Program-made: the position numbers and the translations under genes
In this document: one piece after another, positions 32,165-46,069 of the stretch
Layout of the letters: each line of letters opens with the position of its first letter
How positions within the stretch are numbered: the first letter of the stretch is position 1
From: an uncultured Chloroflexia bacterium
GTDB taxonomy: Bacteria > Chloroflexota > Limnocylindria > Limnocylindrales > CSP1-4
Reading direction: 5' to 3'
NCBI GenBank assembly: GCA_963734535.1
Contig: CAVTHS010000007.1
Location: forward strand, 209,936 to 273,935
DNA: 64,000 nt
The notes under the pieces: generated by a model
Told to the model about the DNA's origin: nothing
Database searches by the model: none
Seen by the model: only the letters and a program-made list of their open reading frames with translations

Positions 32165-32508
32165 CGTGTGCTGCCTCCAGGCCGTCCATCGGTACGTGCG
32201 GTCGGCGGCTGCCGGGCATCGTGCCGGGCGCTGGCGCCGTCCCGCCCGGCCCACCAGTCGGGCCAGGTCCGATCGCGTTCGATGTCCACGACACTAGGGT
32301 TCGAGGAGGCGGCCGGCCAGCCGGGCACCCGGCATCTTCTGGGTGGGGCTAGCCCCCCGGTGCGCCAGCCGAGACGGACCGCGCGGTCGGCTCCGGGCCA
32401 CGGTGACGTCCCCGTCCGCCTCGTGACGAGTCGTCATGTCCGCGCCGCCATCCGGAGGGACGCTAACGCCGAACGTGGTGATGAATGGATACGAGGAGGA
32501 CACGCCAC

Positions 32509-33345
32509 ATGTCAACCGTCCGCACCGGTGCTGGTGCGATCGCCGCTGCCACGCCCATCCCGGCGCAGCGAGCCCGCTCCCTGCGTCGCTGGAACCGCTT
32601 CCTGGCCCTGGCTCACGGAGCGCAGTTCGTGCTGATGCTCCTGGTCTCGCGGACGACGGCGCTGTTCGAGCCCGTCGTGCCGACGGTTCGGCCACTCCTG
32701 ACGGATGGGAAGTTCACCGGACTCGAGCCTTCCAGCGTTCTCCTGGTCTCGTTCCCGCTGGCCTACCTCATCGCGAGCTTCCTGCTGATGAGCGCGGTTG
32801 CCCACGCCACGGCCGGCTGGGTCCTGCGAGGCCGCTACGAGGCCTGGCTGGCGCGGGGGATGAACCCACTGCGGTGGGTGGAGTACGCGTTCTCGTCGAC
32901 CGTGATGATCGTCGCCATCGCGTACCTCAGCTTCATCACCGACTTCCCCGCGCTCGTCGCAATTGCCGGCTGCAACGTCGCGATGATCCTGTTCGGGTGG
33001 AGCATGGAAGCGGCCAACGAGGGCCGCGAGCGGATCGACTGGAAGCACTTCGTCTTCGGCTGCATCGCCGGCGGCGTGCCGTGGATCGCGATCTTCTCCG
33101 TGCTGTGGGCATACTCGGCCCAGGCGGACCTGCCGGCCAAGGCGCAGATCCCGGGCTTCGTCTACGTGATCATCGCGAGCCTGTTCGTCGCCTTCAACAT
33201 CTTCGCCATCACGATGGTCCTCCAGTACCGGAAGACCGGCCGCTGGCGCGACTACCTCGTGGGAGAGAAGACGTACATGGTGCTGAGCCTGGTCGCGAAG
33301 TCGCTGCTTGCCTGGCAGGTCTGGTCCGGCACGCTCCGCCCGTAA
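32509..33345 (+). CDS. heR: Heliorhodopsin
   Basis: LRRWN...HGAQ, NPLRWVEYAFSSTVMI, GEKTYMVLSLVAKSLLAWQ with retinal-binding Lys; seven TM helices; GAGGAGG RBS. Confidence 0.95.
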   Translation: MSTVRTGAGAIAAATPIPAQRARSLRRWNRFLALAHGAQFVLMLLVSRTTALFEPVVPTVRPLLTDGKFTGLEPSSVLLVSFPLAYLIASFLLMSAVAHATAGWVLRGRYEAWLARGMNPLRWVEYAFSSTVMIVAIAYLSFITDFPALVAIAGCNVAMILFGWSMEAANEGRERIDWKHFVFGCIAGGVPWIAIFSVLWAYSAQADLPAKAQIPGFVYVIIASLFVAFNIFAITMVLQYRKTGRWRDYLVGEKTYMVLSLVAKSLLAWQVWSGTLRP

Positions 33346-37676: not shown

Positions 37677-38429
37677 TCATCTGGCGAAGAGCGTCAGCGC
37701 CACCATGATCCCGACCGTCACGACCACGCCGCGCAGTACGAGGGGCGACATCCGCCGTCCGATGACGGCGCCAACCTGGCCGCCCGCGATCGACCCGCCG
37801 GCGATGAGGGCCGCTGCCCACCAGTCGACAGGCGCGACGGCGATGAAGACGAGCGCGGCGACGGCATTCACGACCAGCGCGAGGACGTTCTTGAGTCCGT
37901 TGAGGCGCTGCAGGTCATCGGGGACGAAGCTCGCGAGCAGGGCAATGAAGAGCACGCTCTGCGCCGCCCCGAAATAGCCGCCGTAGATCGCGGTCAGGTA
38001 GACGAGCCCGACAAGCACGCGGGAGTGCTCCGCGCTCTGCCGGCGATGCCGGGCGACGAATGCCGCCAGTCGAGGCTGGATGGCCATGAGGACGCTCGCG
38101 ATGAGGATCAGGAACGGGACGATCCGGGAGAACGTGCTCGCGGGGAGCACCAGGAGGAGGAAGGCGCCGGTGATCCCTCCGAGCAGGGCGGCGACGCCGA
38201 GGCGAAGGACCCGTCGACCCTGTCCGGCGAGCTCACGCCGGTAGCCGACCACCCCGCTCGCCGATCCCGGGACGAGGCCGACGGTGTTGGAGACGTTGGC
38301 CACGAGGGGTGGGAAGCCGAACAGGAGCAGCGTCGGGAACGTGACGAGCGAGCCCGACCCGACGATGGTGTTGATCGTGCCCGCGGCGACGCCGGCCAGG
38401 ACGATCGCGACCGCCTCCGGGGGGTTCAC
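37677..38429 (-). CDS. TauE/SafE (TSUP) family membrane transporter
   Basis: AGTINTIVGSGSLVTFP, ANVSNT, IYGGYFGAAQ, NGLKN. Confidence 0.9.
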   Translation of the reverse strand: MNPPEAVAIVLAGVAAGTINTIVGSGSLVTFPTLLLFGFPPLVANVSNTVGLVPGSASGVVGYRRELAGQGRRVLRLGVAALLGGITGAFLLLVLPASTFSRIVPFLILIASVLMAIQPRLAAFVARHRRQSAEHSRVLVGLVYLTAIYGGYFGAAQSVLFIALLASFVPDDLQRLNGLKNVLALVVNAVAALVFIAVAPVDWWAAALIAGGSIAGGQVGAVIGRRMSPLVLRGVVVTVGIMVALTLFAR

Positions 38430-38493
38430 GACGCTTCAGCGTTGCGTCTGACGACCATCGTCCTGTTCGCGTGGGGCGCGGCCGAAGGCCGGG

Positions 38494-39465
38494 TCACGAG
38501 ATGTCGACCAGCACCTTCCCGGTGACGCGGCCTTCGACCGCTTCGTGCGCGGCGACGATCTCGTGCAGTGGGAAGTGGAGCTCGGGCAGCGGCACCAGGG
38601 CGCCGGCCTCCAGAGCCCGTGTGATGTCGGTCACGGCATCCATGATCTTCGACGGAGCGAGGTTGTAGACGAGGACGAACCGGAGCGTCGCATTGTTGAC
38701 CATCAGGCCCCGGACGGGCAGCGTCGGATCGGCCGCGTCGCTCGCGTACGCGACGATCACCCCGTCCCGCGCGAGCACCTGGAGGTCGGTCGCGAGGTTG
38801 GTGCCGATCGCCACGTCGACGACACGATCGACGCCAGCCGGGGCAGCCGAGCGAACGCTGGCCACGTGGTCGGGGGCGTGATAGTCGAAGACCAGCCGGG
38901 CTCCGGCGGCGAGTGCAAGGCGGCCCTTGTCCGCCGAGCTGACCGTCGCGAGCACCTCCGCGCCACCCCACGCCGCGAGCTGGATCGCGGCATTCCCCAC
39001 CGCGCCCGCGCCCCCGGTCACCAGGACGGAGCGACCGGTCACGGGTCCGTCGGCAAAGACGCAGCGATGGGCGGTGATGAAGGGAATGCCGAGTCCCGCA
39101 CCCTGCGCATAGGAGATGCCGGGGGGCAGGGGAACCGCCTGGTCGGCCGGCACGCAGGTGTACTCGGCCGCCGTGCCATTGGGTCGCCCGGCGGCCGCGT
39201 GATAGACCCACACCCGCTCGCCGGCTCGCGACGGGTCGACGCCCGCCCCGACCAGGTCGATGTCACCGGACCCGTCCTGGTTGGGGATCTGCCCGAATGT
39301 CGGTAGCTCGGGTCCTGCCGAGCGAACTTTCCAATCGGTCGGGTTCACTCCCGACACGCGGAGGCGGACACGCACCTCCCCGGGTCTCGGCATCGGGTCG
39401 GGCACGTCGATGATCTCCAGCACGCGCCGGGCCGGGCCCCGCTCGTGGTAGACGGCAGCTTGCAT
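38494..39465 (-). CDS. NADPH:quinone reductase (zeta-crystallin MDR family)
   Basis: GVNPTDWK, LGIPFITAH, VTGGAGAVG, GKVLV. Confidence 0.9.
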   Translation of the reverse strand: MQAAVYHERGPARRVLEIIDVPDPMPRPGEVRVRLRVSGVNPTDWKVRSAGPELPTFGQIPNQDGSGDIDLVGAGVDPSRAGERVWVYHAAAGRPNGTAAEYTCVPADQAVPLPPGISYAQGAGLGIPFITAHRCVFADGPVTGRSVLVTGGAGAVGNAAIQLAAWGGAEVLATVSSADKGRLALAAGARLVFDYHAPDHVASVRSAAPAGVDRVVDVAIGTNLATDLQVLARDGVIVAYASDAADPTLPVRGLMVNNATLRFVLVYNLAPSKIMDAVTDITRALEAGALVPLPELHFPLHEIVAAHEAVEGRVTGKVLVDIS

Positions 39466-39506
39466 CTCAGCCTCGCAGTCAATGCCCGGGTCGAGGGCGG
39501 TGGGAC

Positions 39507-40742
39507 TCAGGCGCCCGGGGCCGGGTCTGCCGATCGGGCGTCCGTCGGCTCGCGTGCGTCCGCTGACGATGCCGCGGCCGCTGCAGCGGCTCCGTGAACC
39601 CTGGCCAGGGGAACCCCAGTCTCCGCGGCCAGCGCGCGCACGGATTCGAACTCCGGCATCGCCCCGACGACACGGCCCCCCATGATCTTCTGCTTGACCA
39701 CGACCGGACCGTATGGCGTGGTCACCTCGACGAAGGCCCGGTCGGCTTCGTGACGGCGCACGGCGTGGACCCGGACCCCGAGGGTTGTTGTCTCGGCAAG
39801 GAGGATCCCGGCCAGCCGCGTCTCGTCCTCCATGCGAGCGACCACGGAGACCTGGACTCCTGCCCGGCCCTTCTTCATCTGGATCGGCGTCACCGTGACG
39901 TCGAGAGCCCCGGCGGCAAGAAGAGCCTCGCCGACCGGGGCCAGGAGCTGCGGGTTCATGTCGTCGATGTTGGTCTCGATCACGACATGGTCCCCCATGG
40001 GCGCCTCGTGCGCCGCCTCGCGTCCGCCGGCCGGGCGACCGACCCACAGGCGGAGCACGTTCGGCCAATCGAAGTCAGCATCGCCCGCGCCGTATCCCAC
40101 CCGGTCGACGATCATCGCCGGCTGGCCGACTCGGCCCAGCGTCGCGAGGATCGCCGCGCCGGTCGGGGTGACCAGCTCGCGACCGTCCCCGAAGTTGCGC
40201 GTCGGGATTCCCGCCTCGGCAAGGATCGCGAGCGTCGCGGGAGCGGGGGCGGGGAGCCGATGTCCGGACGAGGTGATCGAGCCGGTCGAGACCGGCACGG
40301 ACGAGACATGCAGCTCGTCGATACCCAGCAGCGAGAGCCCGAGCGCGGTGCCGACGATATCGACGATGGAGTCGATCGCACCGACCTCGTGAAGCTCCAC
40401 CGCGTCGGGCGGTGCGCCGTGGATGCGGCCCTCGGCAACGGCGAGTCGCTCGAGAACCGCGAGTGCCCGGTCGCGGACGATCGCGGCGAGCCCCGCCTCG
40501 GCGACGATGGAACGCACTTCGCGGAAGGGACGGTGATGCCGGCCCGGGTCGGCGATCACGTGGACCTTCGTTGCCCGGATCCCGGCCCGCTGGACCTCCT
40601 CGGACTCGAGCCGGAACTCGTCCCCCACCGACAACCCCGCGAGCTCGTCGCGCAGCGTCGCGAGCGGCACGCCCGCGTCGATGATCGCGCCCAGGAGCAT
40701 GTCCCCGCTGACGCCGGAATAGCAGTCGACGAAGCCGATCAC
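39507..40742 (-). CDS. larC: Nickel-pincer cofactor nickel insertase LarC (single ORF)
   Basis: DCYSGVSGDMLLGA, LHEVGAIDSIVDIVG, ELVTPTGAA, ETNIDDMNP, MKKGR, ETTTLGVR, PEFE. Confidence 0.95.
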   Translation of the reverse strand: MIGFVDCYSGVSGDMLLGAIIDAGVPLATLRDELAGLSVGDEFRLESEEVQRAGIRATKVHVIADPGRHHRPFREVRSIVAEAGLAAIVRDRALAVLERLAVAEGRIHGAPPDAVELHEVGAIDSIVDIVGTALGLSLLGIDELHVSSVPVSTGSITSSGHRLPAPAPATLAILAEAGIPTRNFGDGRELVTPTGAAILATLGRVGQPAMIVDRVGYGAGDADFDWPNVLRLWVGRPAGGREAAHEAPMGDHVVIETNIDDMNPQLLAPVGEALLAAGALDVTVTPIQMKKGRAGVQVSVVARMEDETRLAGILLAETTTLGVRVHAVRRHEADRAFVEVTTPYGPVVVKQKIMGGRVVGAMPEFESVRALAAETGVPLARVHGAAAAAAASSADAREPTDARSADPAPGA

Positions 40743-41560
40743 CTGCCGGCGACCGCGGACAGCCCCGTATCGCGGGCCGGGACGCAGTCCGGCGCGACCT
40801 CCGGGGTCGAGCCAAGCCGATTGACCAGGGCTGCCGCGAAGCCCGCCCCGAATCCGTTGTCGATGTTCACCACCGTGATGCCCGCGGCGCAGCTGGTGAG
40901 CATGGTCAGGAGGGCGGACAGGCCGCCGAAGGCGGCACCGTAGCCAACCGACGTTGGCACGGCGATCACCGGCACGTCCACGAGGCCACCCACAACACTC
41001 GGAAGGGCGCCGTCCATTCCCGCAACGACGACGATGACGCGCGCCCGGCGAAGGGCATCGAGCCGGTCGAGGAGTCGATGGATCCCGGCAACGCCGACGT
41101 CGTAGACGCGCTCGACCGAGTTGCCCATGACCGTCGCCGTCACCGCAGCCTCTTCCGCGACGGGGATGTCCGCCGTGCCTGCCGTCAGGACCAGGATCCC
41201 GGGTCGCCCGGGACCGGCATCCGGATCTGGCACCAGGATCGTCCGTGCGAGCCGGTTGTACTCGGCCGACGGCACGCGCTCGTGCACCGCCTCGTACACG
41301 GCGGGCGTGGCGCGCGTGGTCAGCACCGGACCCCCGTGGGCGACGAGACGCTCGACGATCGCCACCACCTGGTCGGTCGCCTTCCCCTCGGCCAGGACAA
41401 CCTCGGGCATTCCCTGTCGAACGCCCCGATGGTGGTCGAGGCGGGCGAATCCGCCAACTTCCTCGTAGGGCAGGTCGCTGAGGCGGTTGACTGCCATGCC
41501 CACGTCGACATCACCGTCTCGAACGCGCTCGAGCAGCGAAGCCAGGTGAGACCTATCCAT
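40739..41560 (-). CDS. larB: Nickel-pincer cofactor carboxylase/hydrolase LarB
   Basis: LDHHR...PEVV..EGK, AGTADIPVAEEA, DVGVAGIHRL, AGMDGALPSVVGG, PTSVGYG, VNIDNGFGA. Confidence 0.95.
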   Translation of the reverse strand: MDRSHLASLLERVRDGDVDVGMAVNRLSDLPYEEVGGFARLDHHRGVRQGMPEVVLAEGKATDQVVAIVERLVAHGGPVLTTRATPAVYEAVHERVPSAEYNRLARTILVPDPDAGPGRPGILVLTAGTADIPVAEEAAVTATVMGNSVERVYDVGVAGIHRLLDRLDALRRARVIVVVAGMDGALPSVVGGLVDVPVIAVPTSVGYGAAFGGLSALLTMLTSCAAGITVVNIDNGFGAGFAAALVNRLGSTPEVAPDCVPARDTGLSAVAGR

Positions 41561-42440
41561 CTCCGCCTCCCGTTCCCACGGCAGCCCGGCCCAGGTCGAA
41601 GCTGCCCGAACGATAGCCGTCGAGGTCGAACGTGACGTGGGCGTAGCCGGCTGCGCGGACCCCGGCCGACACTCGCGTCCGAAGGTCGGGTTCGAGGAGC
41701 CGTGGCAGGTCCCCGACGGGGACCTCGATTCGAGCGATCGCGCCGTGGTCGCGCACGCGCACCACCCCGAACCCCGCGTCGCGCAGGATGGCCTCGGCGG
41801 CACCGATCCGGCGCATCCGCTCGCGGGTCACGGGCTCGCCATAGGGGATCCGGGTGGCAAGGCACGGCGCCGAGGGCCGTTCGGAGTTCGGCAGCCCGAG
41901 GTCGCGGGCCAATGCCCGGACCTCGGCCTTCGTCACTCCCGCACGGGCAAGCGGCGCGATGGCGCCCGCCTCCTCCGCGGCCCGCGCACCCGGTCGATTG
42001 GCGGTTCCGTCATCTGCGTTCTCGCCGTGAAGGATCGCTTCCAGGCCCTCGGCGTCGGCGATCTTCCGAAGCGCCGCGAGGACGACGCCCTTGCAGTGGT
42101 AGCAGCGGTCGGGCGGGTTCTCGACGAACGCGGGCAGGACAAGCACGTCGATGGGCACGAGCCGGTGACGGATCCCGATCGCTGCGGCGACCGCCTGCGC
42201 CTCGCGAATCTCCTCGTCGGGCAGGAGCCCCGACACGATGGTGCAGGCAAGGGCGCGATCGCCAAGCGCCTCGTATGCCAGCGCGGCGACAACCGAGCTG
42301 TCGACGCCTCCCGAGAAGGCGACGACGGCGCCGCGGAGCCCGGCCATGACCGCCCTGACGGCGGCCGCCCTGGGGAACGCCGGGACGCCCGGGGCGGCCG
42401 GCTCGCCGGGGAGCCTCCGCGGCGTCGTCGCGAGGGTCAT
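41553..42440 (-). CDS. larE: ATP-dependent sulfur transferase LarE
   Basis: PP-loop AFSGGVDSS, NPPDRCYHCK, RPG, PSAPCLATRIPYG, RVRDHG, GYRSGS. Confidence 0.95.
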   Translation of the reverse strand: MTLATTPRRLPGEPAAPGVPAFPRAAAVRAVMAGLRGAVVAFSGGVDSSVVAALAYEALGDRALACTIVSGLLPDEEIREAQAVAAAIGIRHRLVPIDVLVLPAFVENPPDRCYHCKGVVLAALRKIADAEGLEAILHGENADDGTANRPGARAAEEAGAIAPLARAGVTKAEVRALARDLGLPNSERPSAPCLATRIPYGEPVTRERMRRIGAAEAILRDAGFGVVRVRDHGAIARIEVPVGDLPRLLEPDLRTRVSAGVRAAGYAHVTFDLDGYRSGSFDLGRAAVGTGGGDG

Positions 42441-43210
42441 CGGAGCAGGTATCCGCCGTCCACGAGGAGAGCGGCACCGGTGATGTAGGACGCGTCGGGA
42501 GACACGAGGAACGAGACGGCGGCGGCAACGTCCTCGGGCGTGGCGACCCGCCCGAGCGGGATCAGGGGAAGCGTCAGCTCCGCAACCGCGGGGTCGGCCA
42601 GGAGGTCACGAGTCATGCCCGTCTCGACGACGCCCGGCGCCACTGCATTCACGGTGATGGCGTGTTCCGCGAGCTCGACGGCCATCGCCTTCGTGAGCAT
42701 CCGGAGTGCCCCCTTCGAGGAACAGTAGTGCGACTGATACTCGATCGCGACCTCGCTCGTGATGGAGCTCATGTTCACGATCGAGCCCGGGATCTTTGCC
42801 TTGACCATGCGTCGCGCGGCAGCCTGGCCGCACAGGAAGGCGCCCTTGGCATTGACCGCCATGGTCCGGTCCCACTCCGCCTCGGTCAGGTGGAGGAAGG
42901 GCTTGTAGCCCATGATCCCGGCGTTGTTGACGAGGATGTCGACGCGCCCGAAGCGCGCCCACGCCGCGTCGAATGCGTCCTGGACCGCCACGGCGTTCGC
43001 GACGTCCACGACCACGGCGAGCGCTGCTGCCCCACTCCCGTCGAGCAGGGCAGCAGTCTCGTTCGCCATCTCCGACACGACATCCGCCACGACGACGGCG
43101 GCGCCGTCCGCGGCGAGGCGCACGCAGACCGCGCGCCCGATGCCCGAGCCACCCCCGGTGACGAAGGCGACTCGCCCGGCCAGCCGGCCGGGAGTGCCGG
43201 AGACAGTCAT
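42437..43210 (-). CDS. Classical SDR family oxidoreductase
   Basis: TGGGSGIG, NNAG, YCSSK, NAVAPG, YITGAALLVDGG. Confidence 0.93.
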   Translation of the reverse strand: MTVSGTPGRLAGRVAFVTGGGSGIGRAVCVRLAADGAAVVVADVVSEMANETAALLDGSGAAALAVVVDVANAVAVQDAFDAAWARFGRVDILVNNAGIMGYKPFLHLTEAEWDRTMAVNAKGAFLCGQAAARRMVKAKIPGSIVNMSSITSEVAIEYQSHYCSSKGALRMLTKAMAVELAEHAITVNAVAPGVVETGMTRDLLADPAVAELTLPLIPLGRVATPEDVAAAVSFLVSPDASYITGAALLVDGGYLLR

Positions 43211-43212
43211 CT

Positions 43213-43452
43213 CTACGTTCCTCCGACGATGATCTTGACCCGCCCGAGGGTCGCACCTGCCTCGGCCGACCCCCCGGCGGGAACGTCGATCGCCGCGAGC
43301 ACGCCGCTGCCGGGAGCCCGGAGGACGTCCTCGGCATCATCGACCCGGTACCGGAGCACCGGCTCCAGGCGAGCGACGAAATCTCCTTCGTCCTTCAGCC
43401 ACTCGACGACCGTGACCGCCTTGCCCGGCACTCCGATCCGGATCTCTGCCAT
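43213..43452 (-). CDS. Stand-alone lipoyl/biotinyl-like domain lacking the attachment lysine
   Basis: VTVVEWLKDEGDFV...PVLRYRVDDAEDVLRAPGSGVL...GATLG; DKA position reads DDA. Confidence 0.75.
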   Translation of the reverse strand: MAEIRIGVPGKAVTVVEWLKDEGDFVARLEPVLRYRVDDAEDVLRAPGSGVLAAIDVPAGGSAEAGATLGRVKIIVGGT

Positions 43453-43461
43453 TGGTCGACC

Positions 43462-44814
43462 TCAGACGTGGGCGAGGAGACCAGCCTCGGTGCCGAGGTC
43501 GATCAGGTCCGAGTTGATCTGGGCGAACACGTACACCGGTGCGCAACCCGGCCGCTCGATGACCTGGCGCGCAATCGTCAGGGCTTCGCGGATCTTCGGA
43601 GCGCTCGGGAAGTACTCCCAGCAGTCGCCGACAAGGAAGACGACCTTGTCGCGGCAGCTCTCGGGATCGAGGTCCGGCTGGCCGCCCGTGATGAAGACGA
43701 CCTCGCCGAGCTTGTCCTTGAACTCGTTGATGTCGAAGCCGCTGTGCAGCCCGAAGTTGTCGATCGCACCGCGGATGTTGATGTAGCAACCTGGGCAGGA
43801 CTGCTGGGTGAGCACTTCCAGGCCGGGCCAGACCCCGACAGGGTTGCCGTTGGCCCGCAGGAAGTGCCGCATGACGTCGTCGATCTTCTCCCCGACCACG
43901 TCGATCTTGTCGAGGTGGAACTCCCCGAGCCCGTCGTGGCCGGCGATCCGGACGGCCGGGATCTCCAGCGGGTCGAAGCCCATGCAGGCCCCGGTGACCG
44001 CGTCGACCGCGACGGTGTCCGTCCCGGCCAGGATGAGGTTCATCTCGATCGGAGAGCCGGCGTGCGGCCCCTGGCCCTCCATGCCGATCACCGCGTCGAC
44101 GATGACGAGGTCGGCGTGCCGCACGCGATACTCATCGACAACCTTCGCGTCGATGTCGTTGCGATGCTGGCCCTGCTGGTTGGTGTGGAGGCCCTTGCCG
44201 TCCTTACCATCGTCGGATGGATGTTCGTTGCGCAGGATCCCCTGCCAGTTCGCGAGCCCGAGGGTCACGGTCTTGGCGAGGTGGACCTTCATCTTTGGAA
44301 CGTTGATGACGACGTCGGCGTCGAGGAAGGGCTTCCAAACGTCCGCCTCGTGGAGGTAGCGGGCGCCCGGAATCTTCACGTGGACCGTCTCGGTCTCGTC
44401 GAAGTAGATGATCCGGTCCGCCCCACCCCGCTCGGCAGCGTCCTGCAGGCCGCTCTGGGCGAAGGCCGGCCGGGCCTTTCCGACGTGGAAGCCGAGGGAC
44501 GGGTTGTCGCCGACGGCGACCTCGCCGGCCTTGGACTCCTCCTTCAGGTACGCGACGATCGCCTCGAGGGTCCGGGGATCGACGACCGCAAAGCTCGTGG
44601 CCGGCGCCTGGAACGCGAGGTTCGGCTTGACCAGGACCTTCGCGCCAGGCTTGATGATCTCGTCGATGTTGCCGACGGCGAGCTCAACAGCGGCCTTGAC
44701 GGCCTTCTTGATCGCGGCCACGTCCTCGTCATAGCGGACGTACTCGCCCGCCATGAACTGGGCGTTGCCCTTCATCTCTCCGGTTTTTGCGATGGAAACG
44801 CGTGCGTTCGACAC
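43462..44814 (-). CDS. DUF362 domain protein with C-terminal 4-Cys Fe-S-type domain
   Basis: KVLVKPNL, ADVVINVPKMKVH, IVDAVIGMEGQGP, DTVAVDAV; CPGC...GDC...PGCAP; AGGAG RBS before GTG. Confidence 0.88.
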   Translation of the reverse strand: MSNARVSIAKTGEMKGNAQFMAGEYVRYDEDVAAIKKAVKAAVELAVGNIDEIIKPGAKVLVKPNLAFQAPATSFAVVDPRTLEAIVAYLKEESKAGEVAVGDNPSLGFHVGKARPAFAQSGLQDAAERGGADRIIYFDETETVHVKIPGARYLHEADVWKPFLDADVVINVPKMKVHLAKTVTLGLANWQGILRNEHPSDDGKDGKGLHTNQQGQHRNDIDAKVVDEYRVRHADLVIVDAVIGMEGQGPHAGSPIEMNLILAGTDTVAVDAVTGACMGFDPLEIPAVRIAGHDGLGEFHLDKIDVVGEKIDDVMRHFLRANGNPVGVWPGLEVLTQQSCPGCYINIRGAIDNFGLHSGFDINEFKDKLGEVVFITGGQPDLDPESCRDKVVFLVGDCWEYFPSAPKIREALTIARQVIERPGCAPVYVFAQINSDLIDLGTEAGLLAHV

Positions 44815-44897
44815 CAGAAACAGCTCCTGTGATGAGGCAGCCGGTCCTGGCTGGACGCCAGGACGACGACGATCGGTCAGATGGCGGCCGGTTCGGG

Positions 44898-45047
44898 CGC
44901 GGAGGGAGGGGCCGCAGCCGCGGCCTTTGCCACAGGCGCCTCTTCGGAGCGGGTCACGTGGCGGCCGGTCAGCGGATCTCCGTCGCAGCGACCAGCCACG
45001 CGTGCAACCCGGCCGGGTGTGTCAGTCGGTCGACACCTCCCTCCGCG
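44898..45047 (-). promoter_or_regulatory. Candidate multi-stem RNA leader closed by a perfect 12-bp inverted repeat
   Basis: CGCGGAGGGAGG (44898-44909) and CCTCCCTCCGCG (45036-45047) enclose further hairpins. Confidence 0.45.
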
Positions 45048-45148
45048 TACTCGCGGGACGGGGTTGGATGGGGTCGCACCAGGCAGCCGACGGCCGGATC
45101 CTCTCCCTCGAGACGAGGCTACGGCACCGGGCGTCGCGACCCCAATCC

Positions 45149-45168
45149 GATTTCAGATAGTGGGAATC
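45149..45168. promoter_or_regulatory. Possible IclR operator upstream of the DUF362-lar operon
   Basis: AT-rich imperfect palindrome GATTTCAGATAGTGGGAATC. Confidence 0.35.
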
Positions 45169-45220
45169 ACGGGCGCCGGGCATCGCCGGTGGGTCCGGGC
45201 GCGCGCCCCTGCGGGCCTGC

Positions 45221-46069
45221 TCAGGCCTGGGCGAGGAGCGCCCCGGCACGCCTGGCCGCGACGACGACGTGGGCGACGAGGCGCTGCGGCTCGAAGCGGA
45301 GGCGCTCGGGCTCGATACCGATCGCGATCGCTGCCCTCGGACGATCCGGCGGCGTGGCGATCGGCGCCGCAATACAGGAGAGGCCGGTCTCACCCTCTTC
45401 GACGTCGAAGGCATAGCCTCGCCGTCGGGCGACCTCGAGTTGGTCGAGAAAGCGGTGGCCCTCGGTGATGGTGCGCTCGGTCAGCGGCTCGAACGCCCAG
45501 TTCCGGATGGTGCCGAGCGCGGCGGCGGGCGGCAGAACCGCGACCAGGACCTTGCCCAGGGACATCGTGTGGACGGGTCCGCGCGCGCCGGCGCGAATAT
45601 GGTCGCCGTGCGCCGAGCCCGGCACGGCCGCGGCGCTCGTGACGATCACCTGGTTCCCGATCAGGCGCCCAATCACGGCGACGTCGCCGCAGGCGCGGGC
45701 GAGATCCTCGAGGATCGGTTGGAGCTCCGGGAACGGGTTCGGGCGGTGCTCGAGATGGGTGAGAAGCCCGGCGAGACGGTCGCCCAGGATGAGCCCGCCA
45801 TCGTGCATGCGCCACACGTACCCCTCGTGCACGAGCGTGCTCACGAGGTGGTAGGCCGTCGCCGCGGGCAGTCCGAGCCTCCGAGCGACCTCCTTCGTCG
45901 GCAGGCCCTCCTCGGCGGCGATCACCTCGAGCGCACGGAGGCCGCGCTGGACGGTGGACAGGACGCTGCCGGACGCCGTCAGCGAGCCAGTCGCCGACTC
46001 GGCGGGGCGGCGGAATGGTCCAGTTTCACGCGGGCCGTGGTGGGTGGTCGTCACGTCGCGAACCCTCAC
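45221..46069 (-). CDS. IclR family transcriptional regulator
   Basis: TVQRGLRALEVI...LGLPAATAYHLVSTL; HTMSLGKVL; GYAFDVEE...SCIAAPI. Confidence 0.92.
   Translation of the reverse strand: MRVRDVTTTHHGPRETGPFRRPAESATGSLTASGSVLSTVQRGLRALEVIAAEEGLPTKEVARRLGLPAATAYHLVSTLVHEGYVWRMHDGGLILGDRLAGLLTHLEHRPNPFPELQPILEDLARACGDVAVIGRLIGNQVIVTSAAAVPGSAHGDHIRAGARGPVHTMSLGKVLVAVLPPAAALGTIRNWAFEPLTERTITEGHRFLDQLEVARRRGYAFDVEEGETGLSCIAAPIATPPDRPRAAIAIGIEPERLRFEPQRLVAHVVVAARRAGALLAQA

Follow-up and report, generated by a model that had tools for sequence, protein, structure and literature searches.

A candidate IclR-controlled operon for a putative Fe-S-containing nickel-pincer enzyme of the LarA superfamily in an uncultured Chloroflexia bacterium

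The nickel-pincer nucleotide is built from NaAD (nicotinic acid adenine dinucleotide) by LarB, LarE and LarC. To our knowledge, this cofactor was until recently known only in LarA racemases and epimerases, and two unrelated folds have been added since. Here we analyse a locus within a stretch of 64,000 nucleotides from an uncultured Chloroflexia bacterium (contig CAVTHS010000007.1 of assembly GCA_963734535.1, positions 209,936 to 273,935), hereafter the window, in which larE, larB and larC follow genes for a DUF362 protein, a small lipoyl-like protein and a short-chain dehydrogenase/reductase (SDR). Homology and linkage lead us to favour, with some reserve, the reading of the locus as an operon under IclR control that encodes a new Fe-S-containing nickel-pincer enzyme of the LarA superfamily, with the DUF362 protein as the client of the cofactor. 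The original prediction, made from the letters of the window, had named the same protein as the client, and it is the best candidate on account of its conserved linkage to the lar genes, its predicted LarA fold and the nickel-ligand and catalytic histidines that it appears to keep.

Several described systems can be set beside this locus. The catalytic pair of LarA consists of His108 and His174 (PMC12611868), and the cofactor is tethered by Lys184 (PMC11796402). About 15% of genomes have larB, larC and larE without larA and with no client identified, notably in cyanobacteria (PMC11796402). Two users of the cofactor outside the LarA family are treated in PMC13524815: NphT, a nickel-pincer hydride transferase of aldo-keto reductase (AKR) fold, and an NPAD-dependent ornithine cyclodeaminase, which that paper cites. 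Like the present candidate, both were found through larBCE clusters without larA, and they show that the cofactor serves beyond racemases and can bind non-covalently, as it also does in some LarA homologues (PMC13524815). Their folds, a TIM barrel in NphT and OCD/mu-crystallin in the cyclodeaminase, are unrelated to that of DUF362, and the part of PMC13524815 available to us mentions no Fe-S domain. Neither DUF362 nor PF04015 appears in the main text of that paper, and we found no published proposal that DUF362 binds the nickel-pincer cofactor, although the supplementary Pfam co-occurrence tables of PMC13524815 might list PF04015.

Compared with LarA itself, the DUF362 protein has the same N-terminal fold, belongs to the same Pfam clan (CL0471; PMC11770544), has catalytic and nickel-binding histidines that align and shares an operon with larB, larE and larC. 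It differs in giving no match to the Lar_N hidden Markov model, in having an alanine in place of the tethering lysine in the window's clade, in apparently carrying a flavodoxin-like C-terminal half with four cysteines instead of a substrate domain with a Gln/Lys pair, and in being partnered with a lipoyl or lipoyl-like protein and an SDR.

The protein, of 450 residues, is encoded at 43462..44814 on the minus strand and matches PF04015 over residues 60-274 (E 4.8e-46, 157.8 bits against a cut-off of 24). A structure model was built from an alignment of 79 DUF362 sequences, comprising 20 members of the subfamily (58-100% identity) and 59 distant sequences (27-40%), and reached a predicted local distance difference test (pLDDT) score of 94.9 and a predicted template-modelling score (pTM) of 0.94. 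Superposition of such a model on LarA had been proposed as a check of the original prediction, and it places the LarA N-terminal cofactor-binding fold in the modelled protein. The best 13 PDB entries listed by Foldseek were all of the LarA family (E 3.8e-6 to 2.5e-4, probability at least 0.99); with VIA-align, 12 LarA-family entries gave Z 14.2-17.4 at a root-mean-square deviation of 2.8-3.4 Å over 212-228 aligned residues, and the next match stood at Z 6.3. Some of these alignments reach DUF362 residue 430, yet only the 212-228 residues align. DUF362 is a distant LarA homologue, and its N-terminal domain corresponds to the cofactor-binding domain of LarA. DUF362 sequences have served as the outgroup of a LarA tree, for which they are usable because DUF362 and DUF2088 share clan CL0471 (PMC11770544). 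The family is large, with 6663 representatives at 50% clustering (E<=0.001), and the protein of the window is very strongly conserved, at about 60% identity across phyla.

The residues of the LarA active site were located by profile comparison. An alignment of 14 LarA homologues from five genomes, whose invariant columns include those that LarA should show (D, R, H, H, K, H, Q and K), was matched by hhalign to that of the 79 DUF362 sequences over 173 columns (probability 82.6%, E 9.6e-6), covering DUF362 residues 31-236 only. In this comparison DUF362 H110 falls on invariant H106 of the LarA alignment (catalytic His108 of L. plantarum), H178 on invariant H169 (catalytic His174), A188 on invariant K179 (tethering Lys184) and H217 on invariant H195, the equivalent of L. 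plantarum His200, which we take to be the nickel-coordinating histidine of that enzyme. By alignment, the window protein would thus possess the nickel-ligand histidine and both catalytic histidines and would lack the tethering lysine. H217 is kept in 20/20 subfamily and 58/59 distant sequences (78/79 overall), H178 in 20/20 and 50/59, and K63 and K176 are invariant in the DUF362 alignment. H110 is specific to the subfamily (20/20) and lies within a three-residue insertion that is missing from 34/59 distant sequences, so that most distant DUF362 proteins keep one of the two histidines. In this they resemble the divergent, cofactor-binding single-histidine LarA-like enzymes (PDB 9Q3J and 9Q3K; PMC12611868), which are among the structural matches of our model (Z 15.1-15.4) and which differ from DUF362 in being Lar_N members with a covalent lysine and a LarA C-terminal domain.

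Position 188 is a lysine in 59/59 distant and in 11/20 subfamily sequences. The subfamily shows a clean swap here: nine members, the window protein included, have Lys181 and Ala188, and the other 11 have Gly181 and Lys188. The Lys181/Ala188 clade also has, after the lysine position and before the nickel-ligand histidine, an extra loop of about 13 residues (194-212, DGK.GKGLH-like), which is missing from the Gly181/Lys188 clade and in which the confidence of the model is lowest (block pLDDT 75-84). Judged from these alignments, the DUF362 family retains the cofactor-binding signature of LarA, and the clade of the window has moved or lost the tether. Either outcome is compatible with non-covalent binding, a mode that PMC13524815 reports in some LarA homologues and in the ornithine cyclodeaminase. 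A protein that appears to keep the cofactor-binding half of LarA, and not the LarA substrate-binding residues, and that belongs to a clade without the tethering lysine might be no enzyme at all and serve instead to carry, store or mature the cofactor. We hold this to be very improbable, given that both catalytic histidine positions are kept throughout the subfamily, that conservation across phyla is so strong and that the genomic companions of DUF362, namely a regulator, a channel and a dehydrogenase, are those of a catabolic enzyme.

The C-terminal half, residues ~329 to 445, is modelled as a flavodoxin-like domain with four cysteines, C340, C343, C398 and C424, that are kept in 20/20 subfamily and 58/59 distant sequences. 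The Fe-S domain that the original prediction had assigned to the protein corresponds to no Pfam Fe-S domain (no Fer4 family matches at E<=10, and the four cysteines do not follow the ferredoxin pattern CxxCxxCxxxCP); the conserved four-cysteine domain does fit the Fe-S site that was then proposed, and the cysteines make an Fe-S or other metal site likely. In the full-length search the matches of this domain to small subunits of [NiFe]-hydrogenases had Z values of 4.7-6.3 and identities of 17-24% (8poz_S, Z 6.3). Folded alone (pLDDT 82.4) it gave a best Z of 6.8 against 48,161 chains, and 13 of the 50 matches listed were [4Fe-4S] subunits of the hydrogenase-small-subunit or NuoB type (12-22% identity), tied with unrelated flavodoxin-like folds. 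These subunits likewise combine a flavodoxin-like fold with a CxxC...C...C pattern; however, the cysteine spacing of DUF362 differs from theirs, and Z values of 5.3-6.8 are at the level of unrelated folds. The predicted fold is generic flavodoxin-like, and the likeness to hydrogenase and NuoB is no more than suggestive.

Linkage to the cofactor genes is the second line of evidence. On the minus strand, Pfam and NCBIfam matches give the order IclR, a 406-bp gap, DUF362, lipoyl-like protein, SDR, LarE, LarB, LarC, a medium-chain dehydrogenase/reductase (MDR) and TauE, the same run that had been described from the open reading frames. Behind DUF362 come the lipoyl-like domain protein of 79 residues (43213..43452; Biotin_lipoyl, E 1.2e-7, 31.9 bits, cut-off 22.1), a classical NAD(P)-dependent SDR (42437..43210; adh_short_C2, E 4.7e-67), the ATP-dependent sulfur transferase LarE (41553..42440; TIGR00268, 276.7 bits, cut-off 150), the NaAD carboxylase/hydrolase LarB (40739..41560; NF033503, 293.1 bits, cut-off 175) and the nickel-inserting cyclometallase LarC (39507..40742; PF01969, E 2.7e-124; LarC1 173.8 bits, cut-off 90; LarC2 135.8 bits, cut-off 50), all on the minus strand and the three lar products all above curated NCBIfam cut-offs. 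If ATG 41560, preceded by GGGAGGCGGAG, is taken as the start of LarB and ATG 39465 as that of the MDR, the intergenic distances from IclR to TauE are 406, 9, 2, -4, -8, -4, 41 and 64 bp. The genes from DUF362 to larC do overlap or lie within 10 bp, as had been claimed, and the five junctions look translationally coupled because of these gaps of 9, 2, -4, -8 and -4 bp. The source genome holds one copy each of larB, larC, larE and this DUF362 gene.

The arrangement recurs. Sixteen genome loci were found with the window DUF362 protein, eight of which (L001-L008) are 81-95% identical to it and belong to its clade (80-95% overall). In these eight, the lipoyl-like and SDR genes come next in 7/7 loci with room, L003 being cut off within DUF362; LarE and LarB are present in 6/6 with room and LarC in 5/5 with room. 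A metagenome scan added nine more loci of the clade, some of whose contigs may be one population sampled twice, with the lipoyl-like gene in 9/9, the SDR in 7/7 with room, LarE, LarB and LarC in 4/4 with room and a gene for a MIP channel directly upstream of DUF362 in 6/6 with room. The synteny that was to serve as a check of the original prediction is there: the core DUF362, lipoyl-like, SDR, larE, larB, larC recurs wherever contigs allow, and the gene run is more than chance because the identical order is found in independent contigs.

Two further lineages extend the association beyond this clade. The sister clade, with DUF362 proteins 59-61% identical to that of the window and with Gly181/Lys188, is found in metagenome-assembled genomes (MAGs) labelled Firmicutes, Spirochaetes, Ignavibacteriales and others. 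Its gene order is DUF362, a sigma-54 activator, LipB (above the NCBIfam cut-offs), a lipoyl-domain protein with its lysine, an SDR and then a ligase or ketoacyl synthase. The lipoyl lysine (T[DEQ]K) is present in 13/13 metagenome loci and in L012 and L015; the last gene is a fatty-acyl-AMP ligase fused to a carrier domain in L065 and a ketoacyl synthase in Geosporobacter. Of 16 sister-clade loci that leave 7 kb or more of room, seven have larB-larC within 8 kb (in L069 only LarB, at the contig end), and five of five tested sister-clade genomes hold LarC and LarE, and LarA elsewhere. The cluster has the look of a pathway, adjacent to the pincer genes, in which an acyl group is assembled on a lipoyl domain. 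We also noted that in L065 (8001-17089), and likewise in L059, L064, L075, L080 and L082, the run from DUF362 to the fatty-acyl-AMP ligase-carrier protein is followed by LarB and LarC, LarE not being seen in the stretch. In the third lineage, a DUF362 gene whose product is 26-28% identical stands directly after larB-(larE)-larC in two other genera (G183, L050, C7 6379-11455; G394, L051, C40 4273-11497) and is followed by a polyferredoxin of about 515 residues (Fer4_5, Fer4_7), with LipB 2.5 kb further on in G394. Adjacency to lar genes has arisen in three distinct DUF362 lineages.

An intermediate clade (P0028, 62-66% identical to the window protein) has Lys181/Ala188 and an upstream MIP gene (L052). 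In L076 and L079, which are 82-86% identical to P0028, LipB and a lysine-bearing lipoyl protein follow DUF362. A strict tie between the Lys181/Ala188 swap and the loss of the lipoyl lysine was considered and is probably not strict, as judged from these two loci, whose contigs cover the C-terminal part of the DUF362 gene only, so that residues 181 and 188 lie outside them. The SDR follows the lipoyl or lipoyl-like gene in all three clades, and DUF362, the lipoyl(-like) protein and the SDR form a conserved triad. The clade of the window seems to have lost LipB and the lipoyl lysine while fusing this triad to larEBC.

The constancy of the SDR raises the question of whether it, or the MDR, is the true client in the manner of the AKR-fold NphT, with DUF362 as an unrelated Fe-S protein of the pathway. 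Where larA is missing, many enzymes with an NAD(P)H oxidoreductase annotation are found together with larBCE, and one AKR is reported to bind the cofactor (PMC13524815). We regard this as unlikely. The SDR keeps full dinucleotide-binding and catalytic motifs (TGGGSGIG, NNAG, YCSSK) and by them resembles an ordinary NAD(P) enzyme more than an NphT-like pincer binder; AKRs of the NphT type, by contrast, have no space for the AMP moiety (PMC13524815). The MDR is not conserved after LarC, and both versions would leave the LarA fold and the conserved His/Lys/His of DUF362 unexplained.

Co-occurrence across genomes points to DUF362 as the client as well. We searched 401 Chloroflexi genomes for DUF362 (presence threshold E<=1e-15), LarC and LarA, and excluded three unpublished ones (N=398); the whole Pfam family was used because the subfamily of the window is rare (2/401 genomes at E<=1e-80). 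DUF362 was present in 126/217 LarC-positive and 18/181 LarC-negative genomes (odds ratio 12.5), and it tracks LarC about as tightly as LarA does (147/217 and 21/181, odds ratio 16). Among the 230 genomes without LarA, it was found in 32/70 LarC-positive and 9/160 LarC-negative ones (odds ratio 14.1). LarA or DUF362 is present in 179/217 LarC-positive genomes. Four of a set of 14 control genomes have both LarC and DUF362, namely Synechococcus elongatus, T. maritima, Haloferax volcanii and M. acetivorans, and in S. elongatus and H. volcanii no Lar_N match exceeds the cut-off. A separate observation concerns LarA: 22/401 genomes have a strong LarA match and no LarC match at E<=1e-10, and several of them, G007, G017 and G020 for instance, are 91-99% complete and contain many DUF362 copies. 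In such genomes either LarC was missed or nickel is inserted in another way.

The original prediction had also stated that the window contains no larA-like gene. The Lar_N profile (PF09861) gave no match at E<=1 across the whole source assembly, which has 3,199,878 bases in 14 contigs, 89.94% completeness and 7.1% contamination, and none to the window DUF362 protein at E<=10; the identical search readily detects LarA homologues in five other genomes. The statement holds for Lar_N and is misleading with regard to DUF362, which by its fold and its clan is itself a distant LarA homologue. A larA gene is likely absent from the source genome, about a tenth of which is unassembled. At E<=1 the Lar_N profile reports six of the 14 control genomes, namely all five that hold DUF362 and Bacillus subtilis, and the signal in the DUF362 holders fits a weak cross-match of the two families.

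Several observations weigh against the DUF362 protein as a cofactor-binding enzyme. Cofactor binding is inferred from homology and linkage. Sequence methods alone fail to connect the protein to LarA: phmmer found no match among PDB sequences at E<=10, the profile of the 79 sequences found no LarA chain there at E<=10 (chance proteasome ATPase matches only, E ~1.3), and the hhalign probability of 82.6% is not above 95%. The tethering lysine is replaced by Ala188 in the window protein, the Fe-S assignment rests on four cysteines, and the C-terminal domain alone gives no fold match at Z>=8 among the 48,161 chains. The co-occurrence counts ignore relatedness, whole families being uniformly positive or negative, so that Fisher P values exaggerate the association, and the DUF362 and LarC families are both common in the same lineages. 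One family (f21) is 25/25 for DUF362, LarC and LarA; exceptions are f23, with LarC in 12/12 and DUF362 in 1/12, and f6, with DUF362 in 2/2 and LarC in 0/2.

Three of the contrary observations can be read together as favouring a client elsewhere. Four AKR genes and one ornithine-cyclodeaminase-family (OCD_Mu_crystall) gene lie away from the cluster in the same genome and are possible clients, like the members of these families already published, 18/144 genomes with a strong DUF362 match have no LarC match, and no lar gene is nearby in 9/16 sister-clade loci with room. The lar genes could accordingly serve an AKR or the cyclodeaminase homologue, and DUF362 could use its cysteine metal site or another nicotinamide-like ligand, its adjacency reflecting shared regulation. 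To this explanation we assign a small, though not negligible, chance. It does not readily account for the translational coupling from DUF362 through LarC, for lar adjacency in three distinct DUF362 lineages, for the distribution of DUF362 among genomes without LarA or for a nickel-ligand histidine kept in 78/79 sequences; moreover, LarC was possibly missed in the 18 genomes, because nine of them also carry LarA without LarC.

If DUF362 is the client, as we prefer to think, LarB, LarC and a LarE of the [4Fe-4S] type would supply the cofactor, to be loaded into the DUF362 protein. The window LarE carries SGGVDS and the cysteines C113-x2-C116 and C193 (CXXC-C), and an SGGXDS motif with CXXC-C marks the catalytic [4Fe-4S]-dependent LarE as opposed to the sacrificial L. 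plantarum type (PMC9283937); by these motifs it is of the [4Fe-4S] type. His217 would complete the coordination of nickel. The acid/base role would fall to His110 and His178, placed over the pyridinium C4, and this carbon would take hydride from a C-H beside a hydroxyl. Because the tethering lysine of LarA is Ala188 here, the cofactor would be held non-covalently or through the clade-specific Lys181. The flavodoxin-like domain would replace the substrate domain of LarA and probably hold a [4Fe-4S] cluster. Such a cluster could gate the hydride chemistry or give it a net redox outcome, the alternative to racemisation that the original prediction had raised. The 79-residue lipoyl-like protein would probably be a partner subunit, with the SDR responsible for the step that follows. 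From the MIP channel gene that relatives carry directly upstream, we judge a small neutral hydroxy compound to be the probable substrate.

The lipoyl-like protein owes its name in the original prediction to a likeness that the Biotin_lipoyl profile supports, although it has no acceptor lysine: none was found at the hairpin tip in the window, in 4/4 genome relatives or in 9/9 metagenome relatives, and the window protein reads VDDAED where LipB-linked homologues have T[DEQ]K. Complex predictions of DUF362 with this protein gave scores of 0.65, 0.52 and 0.05 (median 0.52), the best control reaching 0.01, with contact agreement of at least 74% and partner pLDDT of at least 78; the mark set for the complex score is attained by 58/80 solved complexes and 2/110 mismatched pairs. 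These models lend weak support to a complex, and it is possible that the lipoyl-like protein is the small subunit of the DUF362 enzyme. The subfamily may originally have worked on or with a LipB-loaded lipoyl-domain protein.

Upstream, the IclR-family transcription regulator (45221..46069, minus strand; IclR_C, E 3e-24; HTH_IclR, E 3.9e-13) is likely to be the sensor for the operon. A homologue is found upstream in 6/8 genome loci of the clade (L001, L003-L007) and in metagenome loci L054, L056-L058 and L060. The 406 bp between it and DUF362 (44815..45220) had been taken for a leader. A riboswitch or leader RNA was rejected: Rfam gives no match in the gap at E<=1, neither a promoter-like site nor an inverted repeat is present, terminator-like sites occur at chance level only, and we describe it as a plain intergenic gap. 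The sequence AGGAG stands 9 bp upstream of the GTG with which DUF362 begins. Relatives have a MIP channel gene in the same place between IclR and DUF362 (L001 9109-9987, where Pfam confirms it with PF00230, E 3.2e-40), and the window alone is without it. With the MIP protein of L001, tblastn found no remnant in the gap, and the sole MIP homologue found in the source genome is on another contig at 32% identity. The relatives of the window's operon share such a channel with the L. plantarum lar operon, which, as we understand it, likewise includes an aquaglyceroporin gene, larD. Orthology of the MIP gene to larD was rejected, the LarD model giving 55.9 bits against a cut-off of 390, which leaves a generic MIP channel.

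Downstream of larC, the original prediction had extended the run to a quinone reductase and TauE. The former, a zinc-free MDR/quinone-oxidoreductase-like protein (38494..39465, minus strand; ADH_zinc_N and ADH_N; TIGR02824, 139.6 bits, below the cut-off of 296.8), follows LarC only in L058 and L081. The TauE/SafE-family permease (37677..38429, minus strand; PF01925, E 5.3e-40) is near the cluster in L058 and is also recorded after LarC in L058 and L081. Neither comes after LarC in L001, L002, L005, L007 or L008, and we rejected both as core members of the operon, as they are not consistently recurrent. In L001 the cluster ends at LarC and is succeeded by a septum-formation-domain protein, GreA and a class-I lysyl-tRNA synthetase. 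The window also contains, some 4 kb away from the cluster, a heliorhodopsin gene (32485-33345, plus strand; PF18761, E 5.8e-81), which adjoins a GFO/IDH/MocA oxidoreductase.

The base composition of the window is 70-75% G+C, and its closest relatives in public data are MAGs of Chloroflexi that bear the label Limnocylindrales or Chloroflexia. LarC occurs in 8/61 genomes of the window's own taxonomic family. Within that family, the lar clusters of loci L028, L029, L031 and L032 have neither LarA nor DUF362 beside them. Those of L031 (G409:C4, 10850-13407) and L028 (G192:C2, 13231-14619) are followed by proteins without a Pfam match (425, 381 and 462 residues), which could be further clients, and the cluster of L028 is preceded by pyruvate:ferredoxin oxidoreductase and a DHO_dh-like protein.

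What would a role in pincer chemistry mean for DUF362? A large family is nominated here as a user of the nickel-pincer cofactor in genomes that make it without LarA, a family whose sequences appear to keep the cofactor-binding histidines of LarA and usually its lysine, and to add a cysteine-bound metal site. If this is true, DUF362 would gain a testable function and pincer chemistry would be extended towards electron transfer, and the compact eight-gene locus, with its regulator and channel, offers itself for experiments. Whether DUF362 as a whole is a second, Fe-S-carrying branch of nickel-pincer enzymes we can suggest only tentatively, and we lean towards doubting it; if so, such a branch would explain a large share of the cofactor makers that lack LarA, for instance the 32 of 70 Chloroflexi genomes, S. 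elongatus and H. volcanii. If the link to the lipoyl protein is also true, nickel-pincer chemistry would be tied to a protein-bound acyl or lipoyl arm.

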